Positions 3,217 through 31,192 of a DNA stretch of 64,000 bases are shown here, piece after piece. Origin of the DNA: a virus. Below the pieces are notes generated by a model. The model worked only from the letters and a program-made list of their open reading frames with translations, was not told the origin of the DNA and did not search any database. Each line of letters begins with the position of its first letter. Positions within the stretch are counted from its first letter, which is position 1. Location of the stretch: the IMG/VR virus record IMGVR_UViG_3300020048_005080. One strand, 5' to 3'. The position numbers were made by a program, and so were the translations under genes.

Positions 3217-3647
3217 TACTTTTCTTCTTTTACTACACGAAAGTAAGAATTTTCTACAAGAAAGCTATGAAGATTTTTAAGATTTTTACAAATTTCTTTT
3301 CCGTTCTCGTCCCAAGCTTGCATATCTTTTCTAGGTTTTCCTGATATTCCATCTTTCTCGTACAAATACCAACTCAGCCAATCTTGTCCATTATCAGTTA
3401 ATATCTGACTCCATAATAGGTAGATAACTTTATCGTAGGGATCTGTATAATCTATAAGGTCTATCTTTAATTGATAAGCTTCATTGCTTTTTCTGTGCAT
3501 TTCGATTAAATTATCTATGCACTCCTTAAAATCTTTAAAATTCATATTATTTTTACGGAATAAAGGAACAAAAGTTCCGGAACAAAAAACAAAAAAATAT
3601 GTATAATTTTTATGATATATTTTACTTCTGATACCCATTACGGTCAT
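3216..3647 (-). CDS. hypothetical protein (possible shorter start at 3545)
   Basis: The longest ORF overlaps the + gene at 3612. The internal Met in MNFKDFKECIDN would leave a 66-nt divergent intergenic region. Confidence 0.45.
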   Translation of the reverse strand: MTVMGIRSKIYHKNYTYFFVFCSGTFVPLFRKNNMNFKDFKECIDNLIEMHRKSNEAYQLKIDLIDYTDPYDKVIYLLWSQILTDNGQDWLSWYLYEKDGISGKPRKDMQAWDENGKEICKNLKNLHSFLVENSYFRVVKEEK

Positions 3648-4220
3648 AAGAATTTAGTTTCTGGATGTACTTCATGGGATAATGACAAAAGATGCAGAAA
3701 GTTTAATTCACTTTCTGAGCATGACGAATTTATAGTTAGATCGATAAATTCCACTGTGGGATACGAAGACACGCTTTACCATTTAGGAGATTGGAGTTTT
3801 GGAGGATTCGATAATATTAAAAAATTCAGAGACAGAATAAACTGTGCTAATGTACATTTGATCTTAGGAAATCATGATCATCACTTAGAGAATAATAGAG
3901 AAGATTGTCGTGATTATTTTTCCAGCGTGCAACATTATTTAGAAATTGAGATTGATGGCATTCGAATAATCATGAGTCATTGGCCAATGAAGGTATGGAA
4001 TAAGTACCATAAAGGATCTTGGCAATTGCATGGGCATTGTCACAATAATCTACAGCCAGATGAATGGTGGACTTCTTCGAAAGTAAACGAAAGAAGAAGA
4101 ACAATGGATATTGGGTTGGACACAAACTCTCTTAAACCTTGGTCTTTTGCTGAGCTTAAGAAGATAATGAATAAGCTAGATAAATTCGGAAAAGTTTTAG
4201 ATCATCACGAGAAAGACTAA
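3612..4220 (+). CDS. calcineurin-like metallophosphoesterase
   Basis: FTSDTHYGH, LGDWSFGG and LGNHDHH are the metallophosphoesterase motifs. Confidence 0.75.
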   Translation: MIYFTSDTHYGHKNLVSGCTSWDNDKRCRKFNSLSEHDEFIVRSINSTVGYEDTLYHLGDWSFGGFDNIKKFRDRINCANVHLILGNHDHHLENNREDCRDYFSSVQHYLEIEIDGIRIIMSHWPMKVWNKYHKGSWQLHGHCHNNLQPDEWWTSSKVNERRRTMDIGLDTNSLKPWSFAELKKIMNKLDKFGKVLDHHEKD

Positions 4221-5311: not shown

Positions 5312-6322
5312 TTAGATTTTAGAGCTACCAAAGCCAATTCCTGATTTCTTTTTACCCCCTTTGATTCTTGGCTTATCTGATAGAGCATTAAGAGTAGCTA
5401 AAGATTCTTTAAAATCTTTGCCCATAACTATTACAGAAATAACTAATTCTTTTAAATGTGATAATGACATATCTTCACTCGAATCTAACCATTCTTCTAG
5501 ATTGATGTTTTTAAGATCCTCATCAGATAATTTATTCTTAATATATGATTCTCTAATCGCTCTAGATGGCATTTGAACCTCATATCTTCTATCAAATCTA
5601 GAAGGTCTGTTTGTAATACGCTCTTGCAGTTTTTCTGGGTAATTTGTAGTTGCAATATAAACTACATTCTCAATTTGTTTAACACCGTCTAGAATGTTAA
5701 GCAATTTTGTAGTGGAATATCTGTCCTCGCCTGCTAATGAATCAATATCTTCAAGTATTACAATAAGAGGTCTTTCAGGTTCAATTGTTCTGATTGTTGG
5801 AACAAATTCAACAAATGCTTTAAAATCTTCATCCTCTTTGATATTAATAACAATCCCATTCTCTTCTTCAATTAGGTTCTTAACGCAAAGTTGGATAATT
5901 CCTGATTTACCACACCCAGGATCTCCATAAAGTAAAATACCCCTTTTGTGTACGAAGTTATACTCTTTATATGTTTCTCTTTTTCTCCAGAATATTTTTA
6001 TGTCACTTAGAATGCTTTCGATCTCAGGGGAAGGCAGTTCATAAAGTTCATCAATATTTAAAGCCTGTTTAGCAATAACCCAAGTCTGTAATGAGCTATT
6101 CCATTTCATTTCATAAAGCCCAGATGGAACATGCGGAATTGAAACATACGAGGGTGCAAATTGGTCATTCTGTAATACAGACCATTGTGTGTGTGTATGC
6201 GTGTCTATCGATTCTAAATCATCGTCAAAATATCCTTCTCTCATTTTTCTAGTTATATTAATTAAATTGTTTATTCTTTCCGTAACATCTGCCTTAGTTC
6301 TTGCAGTCTTTTTATTTTTCAT
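5312..6322 (-). CDS. AAA+ ATPase
   Basis: Walker A is LLYGDPGCGKSG, Walker B is IVILEDID, sensor-1 is ATTNYP, and the Arg finger region is RPSRFDRR. Confidence 0.8.
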   Translation of the reverse strand: MKNKKTARTKADVTERINNLINITRKMREGYFDDDLESIDTHTHTQWSVLQNDQFAPSYVSIPHVPSGLYEMKWNSSLQTWVIAKQALNIDELYELPSPEIESILSDIKIFWRKRETYKEYNFVHKRGILLYGDPGCGKSGIIQLCVKNLIEEENGIVINIKEDEDFKAFVEFVPTIRTIEPERPLIVILEDIDSLAGEDRYSTTKLLNILDGVKQIENVVYIATTNYPEKLQERITNRPSRFDRRYEVQMPSRAIRESYIKNKLSDEDLKNINLEEWLDSSEDMSLSHLKELVISVIVMGKDFKESLATLNALSDKPRIKGGKKKSGIGFGSSKI

Positions 6323-7334
6323 TCAATAGGAATTTATTACTGATAACTTTAAAAGATATCTTTCTATCAATGCTTCTTATAACAACACCCTCTCTGTCAA
6401 AATTAGGATTATGATAAGATTTTCCGTCTGCATAAGATAAAAGATCCTCTATTGTATCGGGTAAAGTAAATTCTGTTTCAATTTTGGGTACTGTATCAAG
6501 ACCTAATCCATGAATAGTATTAACAAATTCTGTTAACCCCACATATTCACGTGTGTCTATATTAAACACATTAAAGAACTTAACCGTCTGTCCTAAGATT
6601 TTATAAGGATTACCTTGTATACCTTCTCCGATTAGCTCTCCTTGAAAACACACATTATATTCTAAAGATTTCATTTTGTTCTCTAGATCTAAATTTCTTG
6701 CAACTTTCCAGAATGAATTTCCTTCAGTTTCTAAAAGCTCTAAATTTCTAGAACAAACACCAAACTCTCCATCTTTGTAATAGTATGTAGCAGAACTTCC
6801 GTCTAGTTTTTCTGTCACATAGAATTTATTGTCTTCTACTTTCCATCCTTCAAATACTGATGAAAGATTTTGAATTCTTTCTTCATCAGTCTTTGGAATG
6901 AATCCAGGAAATAGTCCTTTAGCTACTCCAGATAATTCTGCAGGCATAGGTGGTTCGTATTTAATGATTCCCAAAATTTCAGATACATCAGATCCTTCTT
7001 CAAATTCTACTATAAAATTCTTATATCTCATAAGAACATTTATTGGAATAATTAGACCTTGAGAAACCTGTCCTCTAAGTTTAATTGTTCTCAATCTGAA
7101 TCCTTCTGAGCCATCTGCCATTTTTTTGTATGAAGACTTTCTAAGGAATTCAAATTCTTCTTTAATTGGAAGGAATGAATCGATCTCGCAGTAGATTACA
7201 TAATCACCCTCTTTGTGTTCTACGTTTTTCCCTACTACCACCTTCCATCCGTTTACAATTGCCAATTCAATAGCATCCGCACCTTCAATTGGAAGGATTT
7301 CTTTAATTTTCTGAATCGTTGCTAGTTTTCTCAT
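6312..7334 (-). CDS. ATP-dependent RNA ligase (KxDG nucleotidyltransferase, DRB0094/TIGR02306-like)
   Basis: The N-terminus MRKLATIQKIKEILPIEGADAIELA is typical of this ligase family. The KxDG motif is TEKLDGSS. Confidence 0.75.
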   Translation of the reverse strand: MRKLATIQKIKEILPIEGADAIELAIVNGWKVVVGKNVEHKEGDYVIYCEIDSFLPIKEEFEFLRKSSYKKMADGSEGFRLRTIKLRGQVSQGLIIPINVLMRYKNFIVEFEEGSDVSEILGIIKYEPPMPAELSGVAKGLFPGFIPKTDEERIQNLSSVFEGWKVEDNKFYVTEKLDGSSATYYYKDGEFGVCSRNLELLETEGNSFWKVARNLDLENKMKSLEYNVCFQGELIGEGIQGNPYKILGQTVKFFNVFNIDTREYVGLTEFVNTIHGLGLDTVPKIETEFTLPDTIEDLLSYADGKSYHNPNFDREGVVIRSIDRKISFKVISNKFLLNEK

Positions 7335-7914
7335 CTATTAACTTATTTTGTTTATATGCGTCTCTCAATATCTCGTCTAGCGACAATTTATTGTTTTCTT
7401 TCTTGTAGATCACTATAGTTACCTGACAATCTCTAAGTTCCTTCTGTATAAGATATTTAATATGATCCCAATCACCTCCTGCAAGTCCTGCTCCGATCAT
7501 AGGAAGTCCTATACGTTTACCTTGAAACACCATATTCATTTTTCTTAGACATAATGTCAAAGCTTCATAATCAATAGGTCTTAAAACACCATCAGAGTGA
7601 TTTCTTCCGTAGTTGTATTGTGTATAGGCATTAACAACAGTTAATTCTGGTTCATTGCGATTGTTCTTTGCATCTTCCAAAGACCATATTGCATTTTCAC
7701 CTAATACAAATGTTTCATGGTCAATATTACCTAATTTGTTAATATCAGAACCAATAAGTTCCATTTCAAATTTATCACATCCAAAAGCCTTAGCCATCTG
7801 GGGAGCAATACCTGCTCCCATAGTTGAATGACAATTGCATCCGTGTGCAATCACATCAAATATGCCTTGCTTAGCATATTCAATTAGATCCCCTTTTATC
7901 TCTTGGTATCTCAT
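7303..7914 (-). CDS. macro domain (ADP-ribose binding/processing) protein
   Basis: GDLIEY...DVIAHGCNCHSTMGAGIAPQMAKAFG is a macro-domain glycine-rich loop. Confidence 0.7.
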   Translation of the reverse strand: MRYQEIKGDLIEYAKQGIFDVIAHGCNCHSTMGAGIAPQMAKAFGCDKFEMELIGSDINKLGNIDHETFVLGENAIWSLEDAKNNRNEPELTVVNAYTQYNYGRNHSDGVLRPIDYEALTLCLRKMNMVFQGKRIGLPMIGAGLAGGDWDHIKYLIQKELRDCQVTIVIYKKENNKLSLDEILRDAYKQNKLIDEKTSNDSEN

Positions 7915-8979: not shown

Positions 8980-9900
8980 TTATAATACTTCTAATTGCCA
9001 TAAAAATTTCGAATCAACCGTGTAATCTGAATGTGAATCACATTCTATAACGGAAAAACTGTTTGTTGAATATACATTTTCAAAATACTTAGATAACTCC
9101 AAAAATGAATTGCTGAATATTCCATGAGTCACACAAAGGAATACTTTATTATCTGGAAATTTCTCTTTAATTGCTTTTGAAATCTCTATGAAGGTTCTTC
9201 CTCCATCACAAATATCATCAAAGATTACAAATGTCTTATTAGCATGTGTCATATCCAATGGAACATTTGTACTTACAATTTTACCTGTAGTAATATCTCT
9301 ATGTTTGCTAGCTACAATAACATCGGTTATTCCGTTATGTTCTGCAACATCATAGATTTTCTTTAATGCACCAGCATCAGGAGAAATTATAGCAATATCT
9401 TTCTTGTCAATTGAATGTTCGAAAAATATTCTAGAAATACATTTTTTAGAAAACTCAACGTTAGAGTCTTTTTTAAAATTTATAATACATGATTCTAAAG
9501 CATCTGAATGAGGATCTAACACGATAACTTCTGAATATCCTTGAGCATTTATAATTGGAGAAATTACATCTTTAATATAATTAAATCCACCATCAGAGAA
9601 TTTTCTGTCAGATCTTGCACCAATGAAATAAGGAACGTATAATGAAATATCAGAAACTCCTGCTTCTTTTAATGCTGCAGTTGCACATAAGAGAATCTCG
9701 ACATCTTTAAAATTTCTTAATCTCTTATAAATACGTACGGGGTAACATTTATTAGTACCATATTCATCTTCTTTTTCTTTGTACCAAATTAATGAATCAG
9801 GATCAGTTAGTGTCAAAGATTGTTGTCCGTCAGGAAACTTAGAAATCTTATAAGATATTCCTGTTTGTTCTGGTGTTTCTAGATTAATTATTTTTCTCAT
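8980..9900 (-). CDS. ribose-phosphate pyrophosphokinase (PRPP synthetase) family protein (Prs or ADPR-PP synthetase-like)
   Basis: PRPP-binding loop VIFDDICDGGRTF, Prs-like length, and the N-terminal domain DGQQSLTLTD. Confidence 0.8.
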   Translation of the reverse strand: MRKIINLETPEQTGISYKISKFPDGQQSLTLTDPDSLIWYKEKEDEYGTNKCYPVRIYKRLRNFKDVEILLCATAALKEAGVSDISLYVPYFIGARSDRKFSDGGFNYIKDVISPIINAQGYSEVIVLDPHSDALESCIINFKKDSNVEFSKKCISRIFFEHSIDKKDIAIISPDAGALKKIYDVAEHNGITDVIVASKHRDITTGKIVSTNVPLDMTHANKTFVIFDDICDGGRTFIEISKAIKEKFPDNKVFLCVTHGIFSNSFLELSKYFENVYSTNSFSVIECDSHSDYTVDSKFLWQLEVL

Positions 9901-10480
9901 TCTCTTGTGTTTTTAATTGTTTTTCAATATAATCTGCAATAATAATTACCGCTTCGTCTTGTATCCACCAATGTTCATTACCATTTATAGTAACAGAGAA
10001 ATCCCCGTCTGTTGGATCAAGAACCACTTCATTAATAATGACAACTGGATTTTGCTTTCTTTTCTTTTCTTTATCAAATTTCATAAAAATCTCAGAAGCT
10101 AAACCTACATAATCTTTTCTTCTGATCCTTTCCTTGTAGGCATAATAATAAGTGCTCTCTCCAGTAGGACTGTGAATCACAACCACTTCTAAATCACTCC
10201 AGTCTTTTACCAGCTTCCAATTTTTGTGAATGTAACTTTTTGCTATATTAGCAATGTGTCCCATAGCAGCTAGATGTTTCTGATATTCATCCTTGAATTC
10301 TTTATCAACATAAAATATTGATTCCTTATAACCTTCTTCGAATTCTTCCTCTGTCATGAAGCACGGACTCATTATAGATCCGTGTATAAGATTAGGATGG
10401 TCTTTTTTTCTCGCCATATTCTTTTCTGATTTTATCAACTTCTTCAAAATATCGATCTGCATCATCGTGCCACACATCAA
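9884..10480 (-). CDS. hypothetical protein
   Basis: 198-aa ORF. I checked for NMNAT and 2H motifs and could not confirm either. Confidence 0.5.
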   Translation of the reverse strand: MMCGTMMQIDILKKLIKSEKNMARKKDHPNLIHGSIMSPCFMTEEEFEEGYKESIFYVDKEFKDEYQKHLAAMGHIANIAKSYIHKNWKLVKDWSDLEVVVIHSPTGESTYYYAYKERIRRKDYVGLASEIFMKFDKEKKRKQNPVVIINEVVLDPTDGDFSVTINGNEHWWIQDEAVIIIADYIEKQLKTQENEKNN

Positions 10481-10775
10481 CAGTTCCGTAATAAACTACA
10501 TCTTCTACTTCCTCGATTTTTTTAATTTCATTAGAAACCCATTCTTTATCCGATTCGTTTTTTAGACTATCAAAAAAGAATTGGTATTTCTCTTGATCAC
10601 CTCCGCCAGTACAATCCATTCCCTTAGATATAACAATATCGATTATCTTATCTACAATTTTTCCTTCAGGATCAGGACCACAGTAAACATCAATACAAAA
10701 TCCATATTGTCTGAATTCTCCGACTCTCTTTTTCTTCCTAATTCTTCTGCTGTATTTGCTCCTTTGGAACTCCAT
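10392..10775 (-). CDS. hypothetical protein (first gene of the long minus operon)
   Basis: It lies directly downstream of the conserved promoter cassette at 10790-10840. Confidence 0.45.
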   Translation of the reverse strand: MEFQRSKYSRRIRKKKRVGEFRQYGFCIDVYCGPDPEGKIVDKIIDIVISKGMDCTGGGDQEKYQFFFDSLKNESDKEWVSNEIKKIEEVEDVVYYGTVDVWHDDADRYFEEVDKIRKEYGEKKRPS

Positions 10776-11292: not shown

Positions 11293-11877
11293 ATGAAATA
11301 CCCAAAAAAATACTTATCGACCAATCCCAATGTCATGAAAAGGGAGATCAAAAAACATGGAGACAAAGAGGATTCTGATTCTTCTGCTTATGGTCCATGG
11401 GATGCTGATTATAAATCACGCAAAGCAGGCAAGGGCAAAGCGGTAAAAACCAAAACAAGTAAGTACACTAAGAAATATAAAGAAATGTTTGGGGAGAATC
11501 TAATGACAGATCCCTATCAATTCATGAATGTCTTAGAAGAACTCGAGAATGAGTTTATCGATTTATTAGAATCTTTGTCAGAAAATGAGATATCGGAAAT
11601 TGAGGGATTTTTAAATGAGGGGGTAACTTCTGCTGGTAGTCCAGTAAAAAAAGCTCTAAAGAATAAATCAGACAAGACTGGATTTCCTCAGGGTATATTA
11701 ACACAAGTATGGAAAAGGGGATATGCAGCTTGGAAAAATGGACATATTCCAGGAACAACGCCTCAACAATGGGCAATGGCTAGAGTTAATTCTTTTGTAA
11801 CTGGTGGTAAAACAACAAAAATGGGAGATAAAGCTTTATATAAACAAGCTAAAGCTAATAGAAAAGACAAGAAATAA
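11293..11877 (+). CDS. hypothetical protein
   Basis: 194-aa ORF with a basic N-terminus. Confidence 0.5.
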   Translation: MKYPKKYLSTNPNVMKREIKKHGDKEDSDSSAYGPWDADYKSRKAGKGKAVKTKTSKYTKKYKEMFGENLMTDPYQFMNVLEELENEFIDLLESLSENEISEIEGFLNEGVTSAGSPVKKALKNKSDKTGFPQGILTQVWKRGYAAWKNGHIPGTTPQQWAMARVNSFVTGGKTTKMGDKALYKQAKANRKDKK

Positions 11878-12270
11878 TCACTTATAGAAAGGATTTAGCT
11901 CGCTTAATACTGAAACGACCTCGTCTATTTTTTTGCAATCGTCTATAAATCCTATTACTTCTTCATCATTCAGATGAAAAAATTCATTATTAGATAGTGT
12001 TCTTTTCGCTTTATATTTTCTATGAAGCCATCTTTCAATTTTCTTATAGTTTTTACTTCTATAAGTTTTAAGCACAGATAAGTCTCCTGAATTCCCGGTT
12101 TTTAATTTCTTTAATCTTTCTTGTGGATCGTTTTTAGTGATTCCGATTTTATACTTCTCTTCGCCGTGCTGGTCTCCTTCTATAATTAGATAAACATAAC
12201 CTTCATTCATATTATATTTATCTTTTATTTTTACGAGAGGAAACTTAAACCTGCAATTAAAATATAACAA
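11878..12270 (-). CDS. GIY-YIG superfamily (T5orf172/MUG113-like) protein
   Basis: GYVYLI...KIGITKNDPQERLKKLKTGNS is the T5orf172-type pattern. Confidence 0.5.
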   Translation of the reverse strand: MLYFNCRFKFPLVKIKDKYNMNEGYVYLIIEGDQHGEEKYKIGITKNDPQERLKKLKTGNSGDLSVLKTYRSKNYKKIERWLHRKYKAKRTLSNNEFFHLNDEEVIGFIDDCKKIDEVVSVLSELNPFYK

Positions 12271-12272
12271 TC

Positions 12273-12746
12273 ATGAAAAAAGAACAGAAGATAAAGCCTT
12301 TAAGTGATTGGGAATGGACACTCACTTGGTCTTCTCTTAGATATTTTTGTGGAAGATACACAATAGCTTCTGCAACATATCCTAGTGATTTACTTATGAA
12401 CTTTGGAAAAAGATTATCAGAAGATCAAAAAAGAGCATTGGTTCAAGAAATACAAAAACAGATTGAAGATGCTATAAGGGTAGATGATAATATGTGGCTA
12501 AAAACAGATATGGAGCCATGGAGTGCATTAAGAAATTATTTAGATGTGTCAACATGGAAAGAGCTCTTCTGTCAAGGAGAGGACATAAAAGACACCACAG
12601 TGATAGCATTTCCATGTGAAAGAAAAGAAGAGGAAACAATAGTTACTCGTTGGATCCCTATAGATGCTTATGAAGGATCAGGATCAGTAAGAACGTCGGT
12701 TTACGAACCCTATATAAAACAAATAAAAGAATATGAATCTAAGTGA
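12273..12746 (+). CDS. hypothetical protein
   Basis: 157-aa ORF. Confidence 0.5.
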   Translation: MKKEQKIKPLSDWEWTLTWSSLRYFCGRYTIASATYPSDLLMNFGKRLSEDQKRALVQEIQKQIEDAIRVDDNMWLKTDMEPWSALRNYLDVSTWKELFCQGEDIKDTTVIAFPCERKEEETIVTRWIPIDAYEGSGSVRTSVYEPYIKQIKEYESK

Positions 12747-13008
12747 AATGAAACTAACTGCAATGTTAGCAGAGAAATTTAATAGTATGGACTCTGATGC
12801 TATTGAACAAGAATGGAAATTAATCGAAAAAGAGGGTGAAAATGCAACACCAGAAAAAGTAGAAGACGTTCTAAAAAGAACCCCAGGATTTACTGCTGTT
12901 GATATGATCAACTTTGGGGAATACTGCAAGAAAGGTTTTACTGATTACGAATGGGACGAGTTAACTCCTGAGCAGCACTTTGCTAATTGGTTAGAAAAGA
13001 TTAGATAA
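12733..13008 (+). CDS. hypothetical protein
   Basis: 91-aa ORF. Confidence 0.4.
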   Translation: MNLSEMKLTAMLAEKFNSMDSDAIEQEWKLIEKEGENATPEKVEDVLKRTPGFTAVDMINFGEYCKKGFTDYEWDELTPEQHFANWLEKIR

Positions 13009-13112
13009 TCAAAAAATGAAAAGAATAATCCAAAAGATTGCTCTGTGGATTTCTTTTAAATTCCCAAGGAGAAAGAAAAAAAGTATATGGGATTTATAAA
13101 AAATAAAAATAA

Positions 13113-13898
13113 ATGCAAGAAACATTAACACTAGCTCAGGCTATGGAAAAATATCATAGACCTGACTTAGCTCCATTAGATAGAGTAAGAGTCAATAAGA
13201 TCTTTGATATAATGATAGACAAAAAACTCTATCCAGTTTATTCTATTCCTGGTTACGAACACCAATTAGGAAAATCTAACGGATGTCCTGATACATGGTG
13301 GTTAGACTGGTCAGATTATGAAGCAACTTCTGACGAGGATGGAGATATACACGAACCTTGTATAAGAGAACTAATCCCTTATATTGACAAAGGAACACAC
13401 AGGACGTGTTGGGAAATTAGATATCGTCAGTTCAATAGAATGAAATACAAGTGGGACGAATGGGACATTAGAAATGGCGGTGTTTGTGAAATGTATGCAA
13501 ACGGTAAATTGGTATACAAATTTCACTCAAGAGAAATAGGTTATGCTCTTTCAAAAGCTCAATCATTAGAAGTGACTCTTTTAGAACACCCGTTTGATTT
13601 TCTTAATCAAGAAAAAGAAGCTGGCAGAAAAATTTGGTACTATGGTCTACCTGCAACTATTAGAATTGGAGTCGAGCCAGGGGAAATTGGTATAGTTCCT
13701 GATTATTCTTATATGAGCAAATCCGACTGGTGGAAAGAACTTAAAAACAAAAAAACTAAGATCACTCCAGAGGGTTATAAAAAAGATGAGGATGATTTCA
13801 TGGACGATGATGATTTCAATGAAAATATGAGAACTGGAGGTTGGATCAATCATGGTGATGCCCTTTGGGACGGGATGATCTGGTGGTTTAGAGATTAA
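13113..13898 (+). CDS. hypothetical protein
   Basis: 261-aa ORF. Confidence 0.5.
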   Translation: MQETLTLAQAMEKYHRPDLAPLDRVRVNKIFDIMIDKKLYPVYSIPGYEHQLGKSNGCPDTWWLDWSDYEATSDEDGDIHEPCIRELIPYIDKGTHRTCWEIRYRQFNRMKYKWDEWDIRNGGVCEMYANGKLVYKFHSREIGYALSKAQSLEVTLLEHPFDFLNQEKEAGRKIWYYGLPATIRIGVEPGEIGIVPDYSYMSKSDWWKELKNKKTKITPEGYKKDEDDFMDDDDFNENMRTGGWINHGDALWDGMIWWFRD

Positions 13899-13939
13899 AA
13901 TCATTTTTTATTACAATTAGTAATTTCTAGATTTGCAAT
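13898..13939 (+). promoter_or_regulatory. promoter cassette (AAATCATTTTTTAT ... TTTCTAGATTTGC)
   Basis: AAATCATTTTTTATTACAATTAGTAATTTCTAGATTTGCAAT sits immediately 5' of the ATG at 13940. The -7 element is TAGATTTG. Confidence 0.55.
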
Positions 13940-14347
13940 ATGGAAAAAATAGCAAAACAGGTTATTGTGATCCGAAAGGATCTTAACATGAGAAAAGGAA
14001 AGATGGTAGCACAAGGTGCTCACGCATCTATGGCAGCAGTACTTGATCAAATGGTTATAAGAAATTGTCCTACAGGAATTCAGGAAAAAACTCTCTCACT
14101 AGAAAGTGGAACACCGATGGAATCTTGGATTAACGGTCTATTCACTAAAGTTTGTGTTTCTGTAGATTCTGAATCGGAATTAATGGAGATATATGAAAAG
14201 GCTAAAGGAGCAGGACTTATTGCATCTATAATCACTGATGCTGGCCTTACTGAATTTGCTGGAGTTCCAACAAAAACATGTATTGCAATTGGACCAAATT
14301 GGTCAGAAGAAGTTAACGAAATAACAGGACATTTAAAACTATTATAA
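13940..14347 (+). CDS. peptidyl-tRNA hydrolase, PTH2 family
   Basis: KQVIVIRKDLNMRKGKMVAQGAHAS and the C-terminus GLIASIITDAGLTEFAGVPTKTCIAIGP...TGHLKLL closely parallel archaeal/eukaryotic PTH2. Confidence 0.8.
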   Translation: MEKIAKQVIVIRKDLNMRKGKMVAQGAHASMAAVLDQMVIRNCPTGIQEKTLSLESGTPMESWINGLFTKVCVSVDSESELMEIYEKAKGAGLIASIITDAGLTEFAGVPTKTCIAIGPNWSEEVNEITGHLKLL

Positions 14348-15534
14348 TGTTACAAGAATTTTTAGATCTTATAGAAAGCAAGTCTCCAGGAGCACAGCCT
14401 CTTCTTATTGTTAAGAGAGGATCGCAGGCTTATGGTACTGCCATTCCCACATCAGATATTGATTATGCTGGAGTTTATATCCAACATATTGATAATATAT
14501 TGGGCTATGGCTACAAAGAGCAGATCAATGATGATAAGAATGACACTGTTTTTTATGAGATTAAAAGATTCTTAGATCTTGTATCTACAAATAACCCGAC
14601 TATTTTAGAGCTCTTAAACACACCAGAAGACTGCATTCTATATAAACACCCATTGATAGGTGAGATACTTCAGCACAGAGACAAATTCATCACTAAAAAG
14701 TGTTCTAATTCATTTGCTGGGTATGCTATTCAACAGATTAAGAAGGCAAAAGGACAGGACAAGAAACAAAACTGGGAGAAAGACAAAGTAACACGTAAAG
14801 ACGTTCTAGACTTTTGCTATGTTATAAAAGGAGAAAAATCTATGCCTTGGAAAGTTTGGAGCGAAGCCCGTTACGAAGAGAAATTTGTTGGTGTTGTAAA
14901 TTTACCTAATGCAAGGGATGTTTATGCTGTTTATTATGATACTGATTCTCACCTTTGCTTTTCTGAATCAATTCCGGAAGGTTCTAGAAATGTATATAAA
15001 AATAATCGAAAAGAATTAGGACTTGTTATGGGTCTAGGCTATAAAGGTCTAGTTAAGTCGGGTGAAGGTGCTAACGTTGCTGAATCCAACCAATTGAGAC
15101 TTTCAAGTATACCCAAAGGAGAAACCCCTATATGTAATATCATATACAATAAAGATGGTTACACTGCACATTGTAAAGATTATAGAGAATACCAAGAATG
15201 GTTAGATAATCGAAATGAACAGAGATGGACTGATGTTAAGACCCACGATCAGAAGATTGATGGTAAAAATATGATGCACTGTCGTAGACTCCTAGAAATG
15301 GCTAAAGAAATTGCTGAAGGTAAAGGCATTCTTGTAAGAAGAGAAAATGCTCAGGAGCTATTAGCAATTAGAAGAGGAGAGGTTGATCTACAAAGTCTAA
15401 TTGATAGAGCTGAAAATGACATCGTAGAAATTGATAGATTATTTAAAGAATCAGATCTTCCAGAATCGGTTGATCTTGGCTTTATTAATGATTTACTTGT
15501 TTCAGTAAGAAAAGAATTTTACGGATTAGCATAA
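14347..15534 (+). CDS. Pol-beta superfamily nucleotidyltransferase (GS-x9-DxD)
   Basis: RGSQAYGTAIPTSDIDYAGVY is the minimal nucleotidyltransferase signature. I cannot assign the subfamily, which could be RNA-repair associated, OAS-like or CD-NTase-like. Confidence 0.55.
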   Translation: MLQEFLDLIESKSPGAQPLLIVKRGSQAYGTAIPTSDIDYAGVYIQHIDNILGYGYKEQINDDKNDTVFYEIKRFLDLVSTNNPTILELLNTPEDCILYKHPLIGEILQHRDKFITKKCSNSFAGYAIQQIKKAKGQDKKQNWEKDKVTRKDVLDFCYVIKGEKSMPWKVWSEARYEEKFVGVVNLPNARDVYAVYYDTDSHLCFSESIPEGSRNVYKNNRKELGLVMGLGYKGLVKSGEGANVAESNQLRLSSIPKGETPICNIIYNKDGYTAHCKDYREYQEWLDNRNEQRWTDVKTHDQKIDGKNMMHCRRLLEMAKEIAEGKGILVRRENAQELLAIRRGEVDLQSLIDRAENDIVEIDRLFKESDLPESVDLGFINDLLVSVRKEFYGLA

Positions 15535-15551
15535 AGGATATATAGTGTCGT

Positions 15552-16124
15552 ATGAGACACATAGAAGCTTACAGCTCATTTAAAAAAGAAACAATATCAG
15601 AAAATTTATCCTATCATCTAAATGAAGGCATAGGTATATTAGAGAGCGTTTTTAGATTGGAATCTGAAAGTTGGTTAGATCTAGTCAACGAATCAAGAGA
15701 TTTATATTATTCAGGAAAAATTGGTCTAACCGAAGATGAAATTTGGTTGGTCGGAACAGATGCTGGCAAAAAGGGAATATATGAGGGAAGAGAGGTTCTT
15801 CTCGACATACCTTTTGAAGATGTAGAAGAGCTACATGAAGCAGAGTATAGAGGTAGAAAAGTAGACCTCAATCGACCATTCAGAACACCTTCGGGGCCTA
15901 GGAAATTTGGCGTATATACCAAAAACGAAAAAGGCAATGTTGTTAAAGTCGGATTTGGTCAGCCAGGTATGAGAGTTAACAATAGCGATCCTAAAAAAGC
16001 AAGATCATTTCAGAAAAGAATGAGATGCGATAATCCAGGACCTAAATGGAGTGCTAAATACTGGTCTTGCAACGTGGCAAGATACAGAAAGCTTTTAGGA
16101 ATTAAATCAAGTAACCCGTGGTAA
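15552..16124 (+). CDS. hypothetical protein (N-terminal MRHIEAYSSF tag)
   Basis: 190-aa ORF. Confidence 0.5.
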   Translation: MRHIEAYSSFKKETISENLSYHLNEGIGILESVFRLESESWLDLVNESRDLYYSGKIGLTEDEIWLVGTDAGKKGIYEGREVLLDIPFEDVEELHEAEYRGRKVDLNRPFRTPSGPRKFGVYTKNEKGNVVKVGFGQPGMRVNNSDPKKARSFQKRMRCDNPGPKWSAKYWSCNVARYRKLLGIKSSNPW

Positions 16125-16465
16125 TGGAACATATAGAATTATACGAGAATTTTAATCAAAGAACAATGATTATTAAACACAGAAACTTTGGGGAGATTAA
16201 AATCGAACTCCAAGGGAGCCAAATAATGGATGTCGTAAATAATTCCAATGTTATGTTTCCCTTCGGTGTAGGTTCTTCATGGAACAGATCAATAGAGACT
16301 TGGGCTTGTAGAAACAACTTTATTAAAATTGAAACATGGATGAATAACCGAATGGCTAGACAAGAAGACACATGTCCGGAGGAAAAAGTAGCAGGGATTA
16401 GAGTTAAAGATATTCCACCTGGACATCCTCTAAGAATCATGTACCCAAATAAGTTTAAAAAATAA
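16124..16465 (+). CDS. hypothetical protein (N-terminal MEHIELYENF tag)
   Basis: ATG at 16124 with a TAATG overlap. The track starts at a GTG at 16118. Confidence 0.45.
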   Translation: MEHIELYENFNQRTMIIKHRNFGEIKIELQGSQIMDVVNNSNVMFPFGVGSSWNRSIETWACRNNFIKIETWMNNRMARQEDTCPEEKVAGIRVKDIPPGHPLRIMYPNKFKK

Positions 16466-17067
16466 TGAGATTTATTGCTATAATTATAGCGTCGTTCTTT
16501 TTTCTTTCAAATGCTGTAGATACAAATGCTGTAGATAATAAGAAGAGAGAGATTAAGGTTGATGCAGGAATATACACAGTGCTATATTCAGAAGCTCTAG
16601 AACAGCCTAAAGAAGTTTGGTACACAGTGGAATGTACAGACGGAAGGGTTTCTAGGAAAGGAATGGATTTTTACACTAACGATTCAATCTATACATCATC
16701 TAAAGAGGATTACGAAAATAACGAATGGGATAAAGGCCATATGGCACCTGCAGCGGATTTTTCTTGTGAAAAGACAACATTATATCAGACATTCTCTTAT
16801 CTTAATTGTTCTTTACAGCATCAGGATTTAAACAGAGGTGTATGGAGACTATTAGAATCTAGAGAAAGAGAGTTAGCAAAAAAGACCGATGTTGAAATTC
16901 ATATATTAGTAGACTTCACTAAAGGCACAAAGAAATTACCATCAGGTGCAACAGTACCAGGTGGATATAGAAAAGAAATAAGATATAGTGGGAAGACTGA
17001 GGTATATTATTTCAAAAATGAAAAACCTTTATCAAATTCTTTCGATAAGTATATCGTTAAGAATTAA
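16465..17067 (+). CDS. secreted DNA/RNA non-specific endonuclease (NucA/EndoG family)
   Basis: Signal peptide MRFIAIIIASFFFLSNA and the active-site motif DKGHMAPAADF, which corresponds to DRGH. Confidence 0.75.
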   Translation: MRFIAIIIASFFFLSNAVDTNAVDNKKREIKVDAGIYTVLYSEALEQPKEVWYTVECTDGRVSRKGMDFYTNDSIYTSSKEDYENNEWDKGHMAPAADFSCEKTTLYQTFSYLNCSLQHQDLNRGVWRLLESRERELAKKTDVEIHILVDFTKGTKKLPSGATVPGGYRKEIRYSGKTEVYYFKNEKPLSNSFDKYIVKN

Positions 17068-18815: not shown

Positions 18816-19130
18816 ATGAGTAAAAAAGTTTATCTTATCAAAGGTGCATTAGTCGATACGGAAGGAAAAAAAGAATGGATAGAATCAATAACAGCTTCTA
18901 AAGAAAGAGCAAATAAAATAAAAGCTCAATTGAATCGTTCATTAGAGGATGAGATTATCGTATCAAAAGAAATATTTGATAAGTACACTAAAGAGGGTTC
19001 AGAAGAATTAGAATGGGGTAAAATGGAATTTCACACTGATAATATGACAGATGACGAATTCGAAAAGTTCTGTATTTATAGATACGGAACTAAGATGCCA
19101 TTTAAAATAGAAGTATCAGATCTTGTCTAG
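18816..19130 (+). CDS. hypothetical protein
   Basis: 104-aa ORF. Confidence 0.45.
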   Translation: MSKKVYLIKGALVDTEGKKEWIESITASKERANKIKAQLNRSLEDEIIVSKEIFDKYTKEGSEELEWGKMEFHTDNMTDDEFEKFCIYRYGTKMPFKIEVSDLV

Positions 19131-20002
19131 ATACTTCCTTTTAAATTTCTTCTACTAACAATAGCTTTTATTCTCCTTTCAGCTTTATTAGATACACCTC
19201 TAGCCCATTCAGCGGTTCTTTCAAACGATTCCCCAATTTGTCTAAAAGATTGGGGTTCTTTATTTTCATCTAATCCGTATTTAAGTATAGTGATTTGTCT
19301 TTCCATTGGTTTGAGCTCGGATAATATACTCATTATAGATTTTTTTAAATCCTCATTTATTATATTACTGTCTGTGCTTGTTTCAGATTCTATCCAATTG
19401 ATAGGACTAAAAGAATCATCATCACTAGCATTTGTGCTACTTTCTAAAGGAATCGATCTTGGTGTATTTTTAATAGTTTCTATAGCTGATGCTGATAATT
19501 GAATATCCGTGTTCTCTTCTATTATTAATAACATTTCATCAATCGAAGGTTCTCTTCCGTGATAAGAAATAAAGCTTTCTTCCAGAGTTTGGTATTGTCT
19601 TAATTGTTGTGTGATATTAGTAGGGATTCTAACAGATCTTGAATTATTGTTCAGATACAGAAATATATTTTTTCTGATATGCCATACAGCATAACTGATA
19701 AATTTAAAACCTGTAGACGGATCGAAAGTTTCTATAGCTTCTACTAGACCTTTATTACCTTCAGATATTAGATCCTCTAAAGGATTTTGTTGTGAAGCAT
19801 AAGCTTTAGCAACAGATACAACAAATCTTAGATTTGATTTTAATATAAGCTCTTTAGCTTTAAGATCTCCATTTTTTGATTTAACTGCTAATTCAGCTTC
19901 TTTCTCAGGACTTAATATTTCATACTTACTTATTTCAGTGAAATATCTAGATATATTATCGTTAGTATTTGTAATTCTATTGATAATCTTAAATTCCCTC
20001 AT
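19127..20002 (-). CDS. RNA polymerase sigma-70 family factor (divergent)
   Basis: Region 2 is LRFVVSVAKAYASQQNPLEDLISEGNKGLVEAIETFDPSTGFKFISYAVWHIRKNI. Region 4 is the helix-turn-helix SFRQIGESFERTAEWARGVSNKAERRIK. Confidence 0.75.
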   Translation of the reverse strand: MREFKIINRITNTNDNISRYFTEISKYEILSPEKEAELAVKSKNGDLKAKELILKSNLRFVVSVAKAYASQQNPLEDLISEGNKGLVEAIETFDPSTGFKFISYAVWHIRKNIFLYLNNNSRSVRIPTNITQQLRQYQTLEESFISYHGREPSIDEMLLIIEENTDIQLSASAIETIKNTPRSIPLESSTNASDDDSFSPINWIESETSTDSNIINEDLKKSIMSILSELKPMERQITILKYGLDENKEPQSFRQIGESFERTAEWARGVSNKAERRIKAIVSRRNLKGSI

Positions 20003-20657: not shown

Positions 20658-22184
20658 ATGATAAATCCAGCTCTGCTAACAGACGGGTATAAAACTGGGC
20701 ATCACCAGCAATATCCCAAGGGAACGACATTAGTCTATTCCAATTTTACACCAAGAAGCAACAAGTACGCACCTAAGGGATGTGATATGGTAGTTTCTTT
20801 CGGACAACAATTAATCATGAAGCAAATTCACGAGAGTTTTAGAAAAGATTTCTTTGATCAACCAAAAGAAGCAGTATGTAAAGAGATTAGAGAGGAGCTC
20901 TCTTTATACCTAGGTGTAGATTATGACACAAGTCATTTCGAAGCTCTTCATGATCTTGGACATCTTCCTATTAAAGTTAAAGCATTACCAGAAGGCACAT
21001 TGGTTCCTATTAAAGTTCCAGTTTTAACTATCTACAATACAAACCCAGATTTTTACTGGATAACAAATTATTTGGAAACCCTAGTTTCTAATCTTCTTTG
21101 GAAACCAATAACCTCAGCAACTATTGCATTCCAATACAAAAGAGTACTTACAGAATGGGCTCTTAAAACAAATCAAGAAGCTAAAGAATTTGTTTACTGG
21201 CAAGGACACGATTTCTCTATGAGAGGTTTAGATTCTATTGATGCTGTAGTTTCATCTGGACTTGGTCACTTAACATCATTCTACGGTACGGATTCTCTTC
21301 CAGCAATTTACGGAGCACGTAAATTCTACGGAGCAGAAGGATTTGTTGGAGGCTCAGTTCCTGCAACAGAACACTCAGTTATGTGTGCAGGTGGTAAAGA
21401 AGACGAGATTGATACGTTCAGAAGATTACTTGAAACATATCCTAAAGGAATTCTTTCTGTAGTATCTGATACATGGGATTTATGGAAAGTGTGTACAGAA
21501 CACGTAGTCACTTTGAAAGATGAAATTCTTGCTCGTGATGGTAAATTAGTTATACGTCCTGACTCAGGAGATCCGGTTGATATTCTTTGTGGGTGGGGTG
21601 GCTTTGATCCTGAAGGTGAAAGCGAAGAAGCTAAAAATGAGCCACAAAATAAAGGAGTAATTGAATTACTTTGGGACGTATTTGGCGGAACAGTCAATGC
21701 TCAAGGTTACAAAGTACTTGACCCACACATCGGAGCTATCTATGGGGATTCAATCACAATCGACAGAGCAAATGAAATCTGCGCAAGACTAGAAGCAAAA
21801 GGATTCGCATCAACAAATGTTGTATTAGGGGTTGGTTCTTTCACTTATCAATATAACACTCGTGACACATTTGGTTTTGCAATGAAAGCAACGTATGTCG
21901 AAGTAAATAAACCAAAATTCGAAGGCGATTTCAATCCAGAAGGACGTGAGATCTTTAAAGATCCTATCACAGATGATGGAACAAAAAAATCTGCAACGGG
22001 ATTATTAAGTGTTCACAGTCATGATGGCGAATTGGTTTTAATTGACAAATGTACATGGGAAGGTGAAGAGGTTAGTTTATTACAAACAATTTACCAAGAC
22101 GGTATTTTTCACAATCCAGTTACTCTAAATGAAATCAGAGAGAAATTAGATAAAGCTATACATTTACAATTCGAATTAGCTTAA
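20658..22184 (+). CDS. nadV: nicotinamide phosphoribosyltransferase (NAMPT family)
   Basis: N-terminus MINPALLTDGYKTGHHQQYPKGT. The 508-aa length and colinear conservation are typical of NadV/NAMPT. Confidence 0.85.
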   Translation: MINPALLTDGYKTGHHQQYPKGTTLVYSNFTPRSNKYAPKGCDMVVSFGQQLIMKQIHESFRKDFFDQPKEAVCKEIREELSLYLGVDYDTSHFEALHDLGHLPIKVKALPEGTLVPIKVPVLTIYNTNPDFYWITNYLETLVSNLLWKPITSATIAFQYKRVLTEWALKTNQEAKEFVYWQGHDFSMRGLDSIDAVVSSGLGHLTSFYGTDSLPAIYGARKFYGAEGFVGGSVPATEHSVMCAGGKEDEIDTFRRLLETYPKGILSVVSDTWDLWKVCTEHVVTLKDEILARDGKLVIRPDSGDPVDILCGWGGFDPEGESEEAKNEPQNKGVIELLWDVFGGTVNAQGYKVLDPHIGAIYGDSITIDRANEICARLEAKGFASTNVVLGVGSFTYQYNTRDTFGFAMKATYVEVNKPKFEGDFNPEGREIFKDPITDDGTKKSATGLLSVHSHDGELVLIDKCTWEGEEVSLLQTIYQDGIFHNPVTLNEIREKLDKAIHLQFELA

Positions 22185-27184: not shown

Positions 27185-27572
27185 TTCTTATCACCGATCC
27201 CTGTCCGTGCATAACTTGAATAATGTAAGATCCCATATAATAAGCTTCTCCCGTGAACATATTCAGATATTTTTCATCTGTACATTCTTTGCAATATTTC
27301 TTTGCGTATCCTAAAGCTATCCATAGAAGAGATTCTCTAGGTTCATATCCTAAAGAATATTCTCTTCTTACGTATTCATCAGAATCGTATTTTTCTATTA
27401 ACTTCTCAAGATAAGCGTCAATATCGGACTCTGCTAATTTTTTGAATTTTTCGATCCATCTATCTTTACGCTCTTCCTCTCTTTTTATTTTGTTTCCAAA
27501 TTCCTCAATGGATTTCTTACCCTCTTCGGTATCTAAAAATTCTCTCAATTTTTCTACCATGCTTTTACTCAT
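27168..27572 (-). CDS. hypothetical protein
   Basis: 134-aa ORF. Confidence 0.5.
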   Translation of the reverse strand: MSKSMVEKLREFLDTEEGKKSIEEFGNKIKREEERKDRWIEKFKKLAESDIDAYLEKLIEKYDSDEYVRREYSLGYEPRESLLWIALGYAKKYCKECTDEKYLNMFTGEAYYMGSYIIQVMHGQGSVIRIDKML

Positions 27573-31136: not shown

Positions 31137-31151
31137 CTTATTTATATAATA

Positions 31152-31190: not shown

Positions 31191-31192
31191 TA

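Follow-up and report, generated by a model that had tools for sequence, protein, structure and literature searches.

A predicted PTH2-type peptidyl-tRNA hydrolase gene joined to an RlaP-family gene in viral DNA

Introduction

In jumbo phages, PTH2 has been described as a member of an RNA-repair set that also comprises RNA ligase, RlaP and the CCA enzyme, and as RNA-repair and ribosome-rescue cargo of the group 2 and group 3 jumbo phages (Iyer et al. 2021; PMC7824862). PTH2 also occurs in the tRNA arrays of Cluster C mycobacteriophages (PMC5966550). The gp36 protein of Mycobacterium phage Myrna is annotated as PTH2 in GenBank (EU826466), and such annotations have been made since 2008. Homologues were found in 44 deposited phage genomes and in at least 320 IMG/VR viral contigs, and many of the phage homologues are already labelled as peptidyl-tRNA hydrolase. 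The activity and role of phage PTH2 are nevertheless inferred, because the searchable literature yielded no phage PTH2 that had been tested by biochemistry or genetics.

The enzyme that a bacterial host is expected to possess already is Pth1 (PMC3488237, PMC4929431). Bacterial Pth1 (PF01195) shares its reaction and substrates with PTH2, but is unrelated to it in sequence and fold and uses a His-based active site. RlaP, in turn, extends damaged RNA 3' ends, including those of tRNA, by one or two nucleotides, an activity that is compatible with ligases requiring a 3'-OH end (PMC12776372).

The present analysis concerns a PTH2 gene in a stretch of 64,000 nucleotides of viral DNA (IMG/VR record IMGVR_UViG_3300020048_005080), referred to below as the window. 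The reading of phage PTH2 in terms of the tRNA pool and RNA repair is already published (Iyer et al. 2021; PMC7824862), and the gene in the window is an ordinary further example of an annotated type of phage gene. Its importance is modest, as one more well-supported case of translation-maintenance and RNA-repair genes in large phages.

Results

The PTH2 gene and its family assignment

The gene occupies positions 13940..14347 on the plus strand, from an ATG start to a TAA stop, and encodes a protein of 135 amino acids. A preliminary description of this DNA, made from the letters alone, had assigned the product to PTH2 and proposed a profile search as a check, which bore the assignment out. The Pfam profile PF01981 matched with an E value of 1.5e-34 and 119.1 bits (cutoff 23 bits), and the match was full-length, spanning residues 6-135 of the protein and positions 2-115 of the 115 in the profile. 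The NCBIfam model TIGR00283 arch_pth2 was also passed (104 bits versus a cutoff of 82 bits); the stricter equivalog NF003314 was not reached (109 vs 126), probably because of an insertion in the protein. Seven solved Pth2 sequences were matched, and M. jannaschii Pth2 (2zv3) aligned with the window protein end to end (E 5e-24). The Pfam scan at E <= 0.01 gave PTH2 only, and no match to the Pth1 profile PF01195 was found.

The end-to-end alignment claimed beforehand does hold throughout the profile and along the archaeal Pth2 enzymes, broken only by some 15-20 inserted residues (at roughly 37-58) with no equivalent in the archaeal enzymes; the similarity greatly exceeds what chance would produce. 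Similarly, AQGAHA and the C-terminal ITGHLKLL both occur in the protein, whereas the GKGK that had been named is not literally there, the lysine motif being R18-K19-G20-K21. Values of dN/dS of 0.11 and 0.25, versus the related contigs L016 and L009, respectively, point to purifying selection on the gene. The higher value versus L007 (0.57) reflects the replacement of an internal segment, rather than relaxed selection. Membership of this ORF in the PTH2 family is virtually certain.

Active-site residues and predicted fold

The sequence of S. solfataricus Pth2 (1xty) was checked against the PDB before residue mapping, and its K18, D86 and T90 align with K21, D100 and T104 of the window protein. 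The latter three residues were invariant in two alignments of phage, bacterial and archaeal proteins; absence of the conserved catalytic residues had been cited in the preliminary description as an argument against the assignment. Presumably, K18, D86 and T90 are the catalytic residues of the Sulfolobus enzyme, and K21, D100 and T104 their equivalents. The active site of that enzyme was reportedly mapped through mutagenesis by Fromant et al. in 2005, with K18 and D86 in the site and T90 nearby.

The AlphaFold2 model of the protein had a mean pLDDT of 92.1 and a pTM of 0.84. All 14 Foldseek matches in the PDB at E <= 0.001 were Pth2 chains, and 13 crystal-structure Pth2 chains gave target-normalised TM-scores of 0.81-0.89. 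The Pth2 alpha/beta fold is thus predicted with confidence for the window protein. As judged from residue conservation, the protein is very probably an active hydrolase, with K21, D100 and T104 as its putative catalytic residues.

A contrary view would be that the fold is inactive or has been repurposed, either as a regulator that binds tRNA or ribosomes or through moonlighting, as proposed for human Bit1/PTRH2. The clade-specific insertion could form a new binding surface, and the lack of published activity tests for phage PTH2 leaves room for such a view. However, every Sulfolobus active-site residue checked is invariant in the phage, bacterial and archaeal sequences, the core is 44-46% identical to that of M. 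jannaschii Pth2, and the gene is under purifying selection. Loss or change of function is therefore very unlikely.

The beta-hairpin insertion

The insertion, which is specific to a clade and predicted as a beta-hairpin, lies at positions 14033..14131 on the plus strand (PTH2 codons 32-64). Its predicted strands comprise residues 39-42 and 48-51, with a block-mean pLDDT of about 92. Archaeal, mycobacteriophage and phiM12 PTH2 lack the insertion, whereas bacterial and jumbo-phage PTH2 have it, in variable lengths. In comparison with L007, codons 32-64 show 44% nucleotide identity, versus 97-98% in the flanking codons, and at least three hairpin variants were found among close relatives. The hairpin is thus hypervariable and mosaic across otherwise near-identical phages.

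Swapping of a hypervariable segment among near-identical phages is a pattern often seen at arms-race interfaces, and would be consistent with a counter-defence role, whereby PTH2 would strip the N-acetyl-aminoacyl group from tRNA and so neutralise GNAT-type toxins (TacT, AtaT, ItaT), of abortive-infection toxin-antitoxin modules. Such toxins acetylate aminoacyl-tRNA, and cellular Pth strips the N-acetyl-aminoacyl group. The standard substrates in assays of archaeal Pth2 are N-acetylated or diacetylated aminoacyl-tRNAs, which speaks for the same role. Neutral recombination, however, explains the variability of the hairpin equally well, and the Pth1 of the host already has the same activity. A counter-defence role of this kind is quite unlikely.

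Relatives of the PTH2 protein

Close relatives of the protein occur in the genomes of 238 bacterial or archaeal species. Identity was 48-62% to the Chitinophaga, Kofleriaceae and Bacteroides genes and about 40% to Sulfolobus Pth2, and sequence comparison places the window protein in a bacterial/phage PTH2 clade. The term "archaeo-eukaryotic type", applied to it beforehand, is appropriate for the family as a whole, but the nearest relatives are bacterial and phage genes. Phage capture of an archaeal or eukaryotic gene was considered and rejected, because the protein resembles its bacterial and phage counterparts far more than the archaeal ones; it belongs instead to a clade that bacteria share, with no direct archaeal or eukaryotic import.

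Viral origin of the window

The phage setting proposed for the gene was corroborated. Near-identical syntenic contigs, among them L015 and L016, are catalogued as viral in IMG/VR and include one of 190,674 bp, and the window itself contains PHROG matches and a short Gp23-like protein. The best relatives of its RlaP protein are found in uncultured phages of 630-640 kb, Tenacibaculum phage PTm1 and Prevotella Lak phages. Megablast of positions 10000-25000 against deposited phages gave a sole match, of 234 bp at 74% identity, to the crAss-like phage cr126_1, and the phage is therefore not close to any isolate. Five large uncharacterised ORFs (570, 512, 386, 358 and 330 aa) yielded no structural or packaging hallmark in PHROG and tblastn searches, and the short Gp23-like protein excepted, no unambiguous virion or packaging hallmark gene was found in the window.

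Likewise, none of the scanned ORFs was recognised as a terminase, portal or tail gene. These observations would be compatible with a piece of bacterial or symbiont DNA, or some other mobile element, whose PTH2 is a cellular member of the bacterial clade. The relatives in 238 species genomes and the partial synteny in Chitinophaga favour such an origin, as do the cell-like genes of the window, which encode two sigma-70 factors, an ABC transporter, OmpA, a PAS/GAF histidine kinase, ClpP and deoxyhypusine synthase. Against it stand the viral catalogue entries of the near-identical contigs, the Gp23-like head protein and the phage affiliation of RlaP. Moreover, most of the window ORFs lack a Pfam match and several match PHROG phage families only; the 64 kb contain no tRNA genes, and no ribosomal-protein genes were found among the scanned ORFs. 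NAMPT, RNA ligase, RlaP and the homing-endonuclease-like T5orf172 are also typical jumbo-phage cargo (PMC7824862). A cellular origin is consequently highly improbable. The source is probably a large, jumbo-type tailed phage of freshwater-type metagenomes, possibly with a host in the Bacteroidota.

RlaP and the surrounding genes

The PTH2 gene is located within an eight-gene rightward block (12273..17067). The block opens with two small overlapping ORFs of 157 and 91 aa (12273..13008, plus strand), taken from the ORF list, which are kept in L001 and L007 and have no Pfam match. Directly upstream of PTH2 is an ORF of 261 aa (13113..13898, plus strand), for which no family match was found in Pfam, PHROG or NCBIfam. 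The segment 13103-13898 has no counterpart in L007, although its flanks are 91-94% identical there, and this ORF is a lineage-specific insertion, probably outside the core module.

Immediately downstream is a gene for an RlaP-family (PF10127) Pol-beta nucleotidyltransferase of 395 aa (14347..15534, plus strand; Pfam RlaP E 8e-18, phrog_388 E 1e-52). Its ATG shares one base with the TAA stop of PTH2 (TAATG), a junction that is kept in L001, L007, L009 and L016, and is retained even where the PTH2 of the relatives is only 67% identical. For RlaP, dN/dS was 0.03-0.09, with a dN of 0.009 versus L007; a PDB search with the protein gave no sequence match. The immediate partner of PTH2 is RlaP, and the pairing is specific to this lineage.

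In the phage lineage, RlaP is always followed by a conserved protein of 190 aa (15552..16124, plus strand; phrog_7595, E 1.4e-9), syntenic in L001, L002, L007 and L009. The next conserved ORF (16118..16465, plus strand), syntenic in the same four contigs, encodes 115 aa from its listed GTG, while in related contigs a start further downstream is called, giving 113 aa; the ORF matched neither Pfam nor NCBIfam. The last gene of the co-directional block encodes a DNA/RNA non-specific endonuclease (Endonuclease_NS; 16465..17067, plus strand), identified by PF01223 (E 2.6e-21) and by synteny in relatives. Scans of positions 10500-18200 gave 34 sigma-70 promoter sites, versus 30 +/- 6 in shuffled sequence, and 3 intrinsic terminators, versus 3.6, with no excess in either case. 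Since these scans were no better than shuffled sequence, gene order is the sole basis of the inferred operon boundaries.

Other RNA-repair genes in the window

Two further enzymes of potential relevance to RNA repair are encoded on the minus strand. The first is an Rnl5-type (DraRnl/NgrRnl) ATP-dependent RNA ligase of 340 aa (6312..7334), which matched PF21189 and PF09414, as well as TIGR02306 at 200.9 bits (cutoff 151 bits), and to which the Naegleria RNA ligase 5cot is matched full-length (E 4e-73). It is likely to be the sealing enzyme of the repair set. The second is a class-II nucleotidyltransferase of 244 aa (27569..28303; PF01743, E 4e-20), with the head and neck of CCA-adding enzymes and poly(A) polymerases. 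This protein aligns with residues 38-247 of the 502-aa cca1 protein (9ns2), is below every NCBIfam CCA/PcnB cutoff and has no body and tail domains, being truncated compared with the cellular enzymes of roughly 400 aa. The ligase gene is 6.6 kb and the CCA-like gene 13 kb distant from PTH2; as both are on the opposite strand, neither belongs to the transcription unit of PTH2.

A CCA enzyme and an RNA ligase had been listed in the preliminary description as companions of PTH2. An RNA ligase and a CCA-like nucleotidyltransferase are indeed encoded, though kilobases away, and the "CCA enzyme", which probably corresponds to 27569..28303, is a head-and-neck fragment. RlaP, the immediate neighbour, was not named in that finding. 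A Pfam scan of roughly 55 window ORFs revealed no PNKP end-healing kinase/phosphatase. The window also encodes two calcineurin-like phosphoesterases (3612..4220 and 43343..44164), which could be candidates for an end-healing role.

Gene neighborhoods of viral PTH2

RlaP was found within 5 kb of PTH2 at 3 of 80 viral loci and at none of 80 bacterial loci, which rules out adjacency of the two genes as a general rule. At these loci, no conserved physical linkage of PTH2 with repair genes across lineages was found, and PTH2 is missing from the 5-6 kb around the nearest RlaP homologues (LR756502, PTm1). In a Pfam survey of the 261 ORFs of at least 190 aa around viral PTH2 genes, RNA_ligase was detected three times, HAD_PNKP and RlaP twice each and PolyA_pol once, with no dominant protein partner. 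By comparison, of 59 dereplicated viral loci, 37 have tRNA genes (maximum 20 per locus) no more than 5 kb from PTH2, and two have tmRNA. The recurrent neighbour of viral PTH2 is thus tRNA genes, rather than any protein partner. A second, independent lineage (L074) carries a CCA enzyme, PTH2 and RlaP inside 7.7 kb.

The frequency of tRNA arrays, sometimes with tmRNA, and the rarity of RlaP adjacency would suit a PTH2 that acts as a booster of translation only, by recycling the drop-off peptidyl-tRNA of intense phage translation; RlaP would then be a coincidental neighbour, with no link to defence or repair. Growth of phage lambda depends on host Pth levels because of bar minigenes, which also favours this account. 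Codon-usage mismatch and short ORFs are named in it as sources of drop-off. The same rationale has been given for PTH2 in mycobacteriophages (PMC5966550). On the other side, the TAATG coupling to RlaP persists in relatives with divergent PTH2, a similar neighborhood with a CCA enzyme recurs in L074, and the window also encodes an RNA ligase and a CCA-like enzyme. As an exclusive account it is possible but doubtful, and it overlaps with a role in tRNA maintenance and repair more than it excludes one.

Discussion

Proposed role of the PTH2 protein

The best explanation of these data is that the gene probably encodes a catalytically competent, phage-borne PTH2 in a predicted toolkit for tRNA maintenance and repair. 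The enzyme would cleave the ester bond that joins a peptide or N-acyl-amino acid to A76 at the tRNA 3' end, acting on tRNAs that have departed or been expelled from stalled ribosomes, and the free tRNA, with its 3'-OH, would go back to the pool during infection. In the lineage of the window, PTH2 would be made jointly with RlaP, as an extender of damaged RNA 3' ends, and the two, together with the Rnl5 ligase and the CCA-like nucleotidyltransferase, would constitute the toolkit. Translation may thereby be sustained when host ribotoxins or heavy phage translation drain the usable tRNA.

Maintenance of the tRNA pool is a reasonably likely biological role for the window PTH2, and the position of PTH2 inside the phage's own tRNA array in most other phages fits a general function of this type. 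The tRNA-pool protection that the preliminary description had put forward is supported by RlaP, the Rnl5 and CCA-like genes, the tRNA arrays of other phages and the published analysis (PMC7824862). A specific functional coupling of PTH2 to RlaP-dependent repair is more tentative, and less likely than not. It is improbable that PTH2 and RlaP perform a coupled two-enzyme step on the same damaged tRNA, with the recombining hairpin as an arms-race surface. In such a scheme, tRNAs cut or trimmed by host ribotoxins while charged would first lose their peptidyl or N-acyl-aminoacyl group through PTH2, RlaP would next replace the lost nucleotide(s), and the Rnl5 ligase or the CCA-like enzyme would complete the repair; the hairpin might, for example, escape a host inhibitor or recognise toxin-modified tRNA. 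Experiments could be guided by two features, the stop/start overlap kept between PTH2 and RlaP and the exchange of the hypervariable hairpin.

Comparison with known systems

The PTH2 proteins of phages RsoM2USA (gp157; Ralstonia), Myrna (gp36), phiM12 (gp226; Sinorhizobium) and XacN1 (Xanthomonas), as well as phrog_1866, resemble the window protein in family and size, and these phage proteins are 47-57% identical to it over 96-99% of the protein. The insertion is shared with RsoM2USA, unlike the mycobacteriophage and phiM12 proteins, in which the hairpin is missing. The coupling to RlaP distinguishes the window from RsoM2USA, phiM12 and Myrna. No tRNA genes occur in the 64-kb window, whereas most phage copies of PTH2 are in tRNA arrays.

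Bacterial chromosomal PTH2 proteins (Chitinophaga spp., Kofleriaceae/Haliangiales and Bacteroides/Phocaeicola), in the identity range of 48-62% given above, have the same invariant residues as the window protein and, like it, the insertion that separates helix 1 from the WL/FTK segment. Their genes are cellular, located on megabase scaffolds and partly syntenic within Chitinophaga, and none has RlaP within 5 kb.

The enzymes of M. jannaschii (2zv3), S. solfataricus (1xty), P. horikoshii (1wn2) and A. fulgidus (3erj) and human PTRH2/Bit1 (1q7s) have the same fold. Archaeal Pth2 and PTRH2/Bit1 have in common with the window protein the GKGK-type lysine, the DAG aspartate, the threonine and the C-terminal LKLL. 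They are 30-46% identical to it, comprise 115-123 aa without the beta-hairpin insertion, and serve housekeeping functions in organisms most of which have no Pth1.

The RNA-repair sets described previously (Iyer et al. 2021; Carruthers et al. 2025) consist of RlaP, RNA ligase and a CCA-adding enzyme. The window differs from these sets in that the parts are spread over 22 kb and both strands, the partner of RlaP is PTH2 and not the ligase, and no PNKP-type enzyme was recognised. Nevertheless, RlaP, an Rnl5 ligase (which joins 5'-phosphate to 3'-OH) and a class-II nucleotidyltransferase are all encoded, and the combination of RNA ligase and RlaP in this phage is that of the jumbo-phage RNA-repair set.

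Identity and predicted fold of the PTH2 protein

The ORF at 13940..14347 (+), which runs from ATG to TAA over 135 codons, encodes a protein of the PTH2 family, and the end-to-end family match proposed in the preliminary description was confirmed by profile searches. Residues 6-135 matched Pfam PF01981 (PTH2) over profile positions 2-115 of 115 (E 1.5e-34), with 119 bits versus a gathering score of 23 bits, and the product also matched PHROG family phrog_1866 (E 3.7e-36). Among the NCBIfam models, TIGR00283 (arch_pth2) was passed (104 bits, above the 82-bit cutoff), and the stricter NF003314 gave 109, under its cutoff of 126. Seven solved Pth2 proteins were matched in a phmmer search of PDB sequences, the best being that of M. 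jannaschii (2zv3; E 5e-24), which aligned over the full length except for a single gap facing query residues about 43-57. Chance cannot account for this match. The motifs described earlier are present, except that the first reads RKGK and not GKGK.

Residues K18, D86 and T90 of S. solfataricus Pth2 (reference sequence of 120 residues, verified against PDB entry 1xty) correspond to K21, D100 and T104 of the window protein, and these columns were invariant in alignments of phage, bacterial and archaeal proteins. Fromant et al. are reported to have shown by mutagenesis in 2005 that K18 and D86 of the Sulfolobus enzyme matter for catalysis. An AlphaFold2 model built with 27 homologues as input had a mean pLDDT of 92.1 and a pTM of 0.84. 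All 14 Foldseek matches to this model in the PDB (E <= 0.001) were Pth2 chains, and target-normalized TM-scores for the 13 crystal-structure chains were 0.81-0.89. The dN/dS ratio of PTH2 was 0.11 and 0.25 in comparison with the related contigs L016 and L009, respectively. In view of the invariant residues, the predicted fold and the dN/dS values, the protein has all the traits of a working PTH2 in sequence and fold, from which we infer its activity. A repurposed, inactive PTH2 fold is unlikely, since the active-site positions are invariant. The literature search found no experimental study of any phage PTH2.

The favored explanation is that an active enzyme would, in the infected cell, release tRNA bound in peptidyl or N-acyl-aminoacyl esters. 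Cellular Pth neutralizes GNAT toxins that acetylate aminoacyl-tRNA (PMC9241777), and the phage PTH2 could conceivably serve to neutralize such toxins, although we consider this improbable.

Clade placement and a hypervariable hairpin

The designation "archaeo-eukaryotic type" is right for the family, but the gene's own clade is bacterial and phage, as judged by the identities and by a common insertion. When one genome was scanned for each GTDB species, 238 proved to have a PTH2 relative of 48-61% identity. Among them were many species of Chitinophaga, in which the gene lies on megabase scaffolds and its neighbors are conserved in part, as well as Kofleriaceae/Haliangiales and Bacteroides/Phocaeicola; archaeal and human Pth2 were 30-46% identical to the window protein. 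The insertion, located after helix 1, is common to the bacterial and jumbo-phage proteins, whereas archaeal, mycobacteriophage and phiM12 PTH2 lack it. The PTH2 of an Asgard-binned contig (Promethearchaeota MAG JAFGOA010000025.1) also falls into the bacterial/phage clade, with 55% identity and the insertion; the contig could be a mis-binned viral one or reflect lateral transfer.

In the AlphaFold2 model the insertion folds, with high confidence, into a beta-hairpin whose strands span residues 39-42 and 48-51. In comparison with the related contig L007, the flanking DNA is 91-94% identical and the dN of RlaP, the product of the adjacent gene, is 0.009, while PTH2 codons 32-64 (window 14033..14131) are 44% identical in nucleotides (compare L007 5001-5411), with a value of 77% for codons 65-97. 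In close relatives the hairpin occurs in at least three variants, e.g., VIRNCPTGI, VILSHKKEI and YYGRSELDS. These sequence comparisons point to the swapping, by recombination, of an internal segment centered on the predicted hairpin.

Conserved overlap of PTH2 with RlaP and a proposed coupling

PTH2 lies in a rightward block (12273-17067, +) flanked on either side by leftward genes, in the order orf157, orf91, orf261, PTH2, RlaP, orf190, orf115 and Endonuclease_NS. The last A of the PTH2 stop codon TAA (14345-14347) is the first base of the RlaP ATG (14347-14349). The same TAATG junction was found in the related contigs L001, L007, L009 and L016 (PTH2 identity to the window copy of 100, 75, 67 and 85%, respectively), in which the cassette of PTH2, RlaP, orf190, orf113 (orf115 of the window, called from a downstream start) and Endonuclease_NS is kept. 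Directly upstream of PTH2, orf261 (261 aa; 13103..13898), which had no family match, constitutes an insertion/deletion relative to L007, where it is absent. Promoter and terminator scans around the block were uninformative.

In this lineage, PTH2 would be co-translated with RlaP (PF10127; 395 aa; 14347..15534, +). RlaP was recently found to add one or two nucleotides to RNA 3'-OH ends and to prefer damaged RNAs, and over-damaged tRNA depends on it to regain aminoacylation once ligated; the 3'-OH end that it leaves suits ligases that join 5'-phosphate to 3'-OH (PMC12776372). The RNA ligase of the window (Rnl5 type; 6312..7334, -) is by family assignment of this kind. Together, PTH2 and RlaP may belong to a set of scattered genes that maintain and repair tRNA.

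Gene content and phage nature of the window

The window is concluded to derive from a large phage, possibly of a Bacteroidota host. Its G+C content is about 33%, and many ORFs have no family match, others matching phage PHROG families. An identical PTH2 protein is encoded on 15 metagenome contigs, and syntenic relatives, one of 190,674 bp, are listed as viral in IMG/VR. The nearest RlaP homologues belong to uncultured phages of 630-640 kb (57% identity), to Tenacibaculum phage PTm1 (39%) and to the Lak phages of Prevotella (38%). No terminase, portal or tail genes were recognized among the window ORFs scanned, and a 296-aa Gp23-like protein (24661..25551, +; PF07068, E 2.5e-14), whose similarity to major capsid proteins of the T4 Gp23 type is confined to their middle and C-terminal part, with 23-25% identity to capsid genes, is too short for a main capsid protein. 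That a bacterial fragment was mis-assigned as phage is unlikely.

The 64 kb contain no tRNA genes. A CCA-like nucleotidyltransferase is encoded at 27569..28303 (-), and a YggL homologue (50S ribosome-binding protein; 10392..10775, -; PF04320, E 1.5e-7) is a further translation-related gene near the PTH2 block. The Rnl5 ligase is flanked by an AAA ATPase on one side and, on the other, by a 203-aa protein of weak macro/DarG likeness (NF048014, E 1e-7, far under the cutoff); this group (5312..7914, -) may be a repair cassette of its own, for RNA or ADP-ribose. A full-length NAMPT homologue (20658..22184, +; phrog_448, E 1e-190) and a Prs-like phosphoribosyltransferase (8980..9900, -) resemble phage NAD+ salvage/reconstitution genes, thought to counter NAD-depleting defenses. 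At the DNA level the window matches a deposited phage in one place only, a DUF5824 gene (11293..11877, +); in that phage, cr126_1, the matching region carries the annotation NAMPT. Directly adjoining this gene, on the other strand, is a homing-endonuclease-like gene of the T5orf172/MUG113 type (11878..12270, -).

Other genes include an SF1 helicase, two sigma-70 family factors (19127..20002 and 58872..59738, both -), one with regions 1.2, 2, 3 and 4 and the other with 1.2 and 2 only, and a series of cell-like genes, which code for the ATPase and permease of an ABC transporter, an OmpA-domain protein, a GAF/PAS histidine kinase, an SPFH/band-7 protein and ClpP (29539..32968 (-), 40679..42814 (-), 22270..24162 (+), 46430..47002 (-)). 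A deoxyhypusine synthase family protein (51981..52961, -; PF01916, E 9e-40), unusual as phage cargo, could perform eIF5A-type hypusine chemistry or act as a homospermidine synthase.

Neighborhoods of other viral PTH2 genes

A pattern scan of IMG/VR detected PTH2 relatives on at least 320 viral contigs, of which 80 were fetched; clustering by PTH2 at 90% identity reduced these to 59 loci. RlaP was located within 5 kb of PTH2 in only 3 of the 80 loci, two of which (L015 and L016) represent the window's own lineage; the third (L074) is of an independent lineage, in which 7.7 kb hold PTH2 and RlaP together with a full CCA enzyme and an R2K ATP-grasp protein. No protein family was dominant among 261 larger neighboring ORFs. 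tRNA genes occurred within 5 kb in 37 of the 59 loci (maximum 20 per locus), with a tmRNA additionally present in two. Given the frequency of tRNA genes, the rarity of RlaP and the lack of a dominant protein family, the recurrent context of viral PTH2 is tRNA, and pairing with RlaP is a variant of it specific to the lineage. The association with tRNA arrays favors pure translation support, without a link to defense, a reading that overlaps with the tRNA maintenance and repair role and is, on its own, a tentative possibility.

The two tmRNA genes (L076, 6956-7311; L083, 9982-10364) lie a few kb from PTH2, in or beside tRNA arrays. Eight of the 59 loci carry within 5 kb a suppressor-type tRNA reading UAG or UGA (labeled Pyl or SeC by ARAGORN), with anticodon CTA in L039, L044, L053, L058, L068 and L082, and TCA in L060 and L080. 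These tRNAs are a hint that some of the phages recode stop codons, and recoding might be connected with the recycling of peptidyl-tRNA.

Comparison with known phage PTH2 proteins

The association of PTH2 with tRNA genes is also known from cluster C mycobacteriophages, in which PTH2 occurs in tRNA arrays (PMC5966550); in Myrna, a tRNA nucleotidyltransferase is located 3 kb upstream of gp36 (PTH2). By tblastn, homologues were detected in 44 of 50,697 deposited phage records, including RsoM2USA (57% identity), the mycobacteriophages Myrna, Baka and Sandalphon (52-54%), the Sinorhizobium phiM12 group, XacN1, Atu_ph07 and RaK2, and many are already annotated as peptidyl-tRNA hydrolase. The proposed role in protecting the tRNA pool, together with the CCA enzyme and RNA ligase, is supported, yet it has already been published and appears in database annotations: Iyer et al. 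(PMC7824862) gave nearly verbatim the same reading of phage PTH2. To these known systems the window adds small new details, namely the coupling to RlaP, the hypervariable hairpin and the placement in the bacterial/phage clade.
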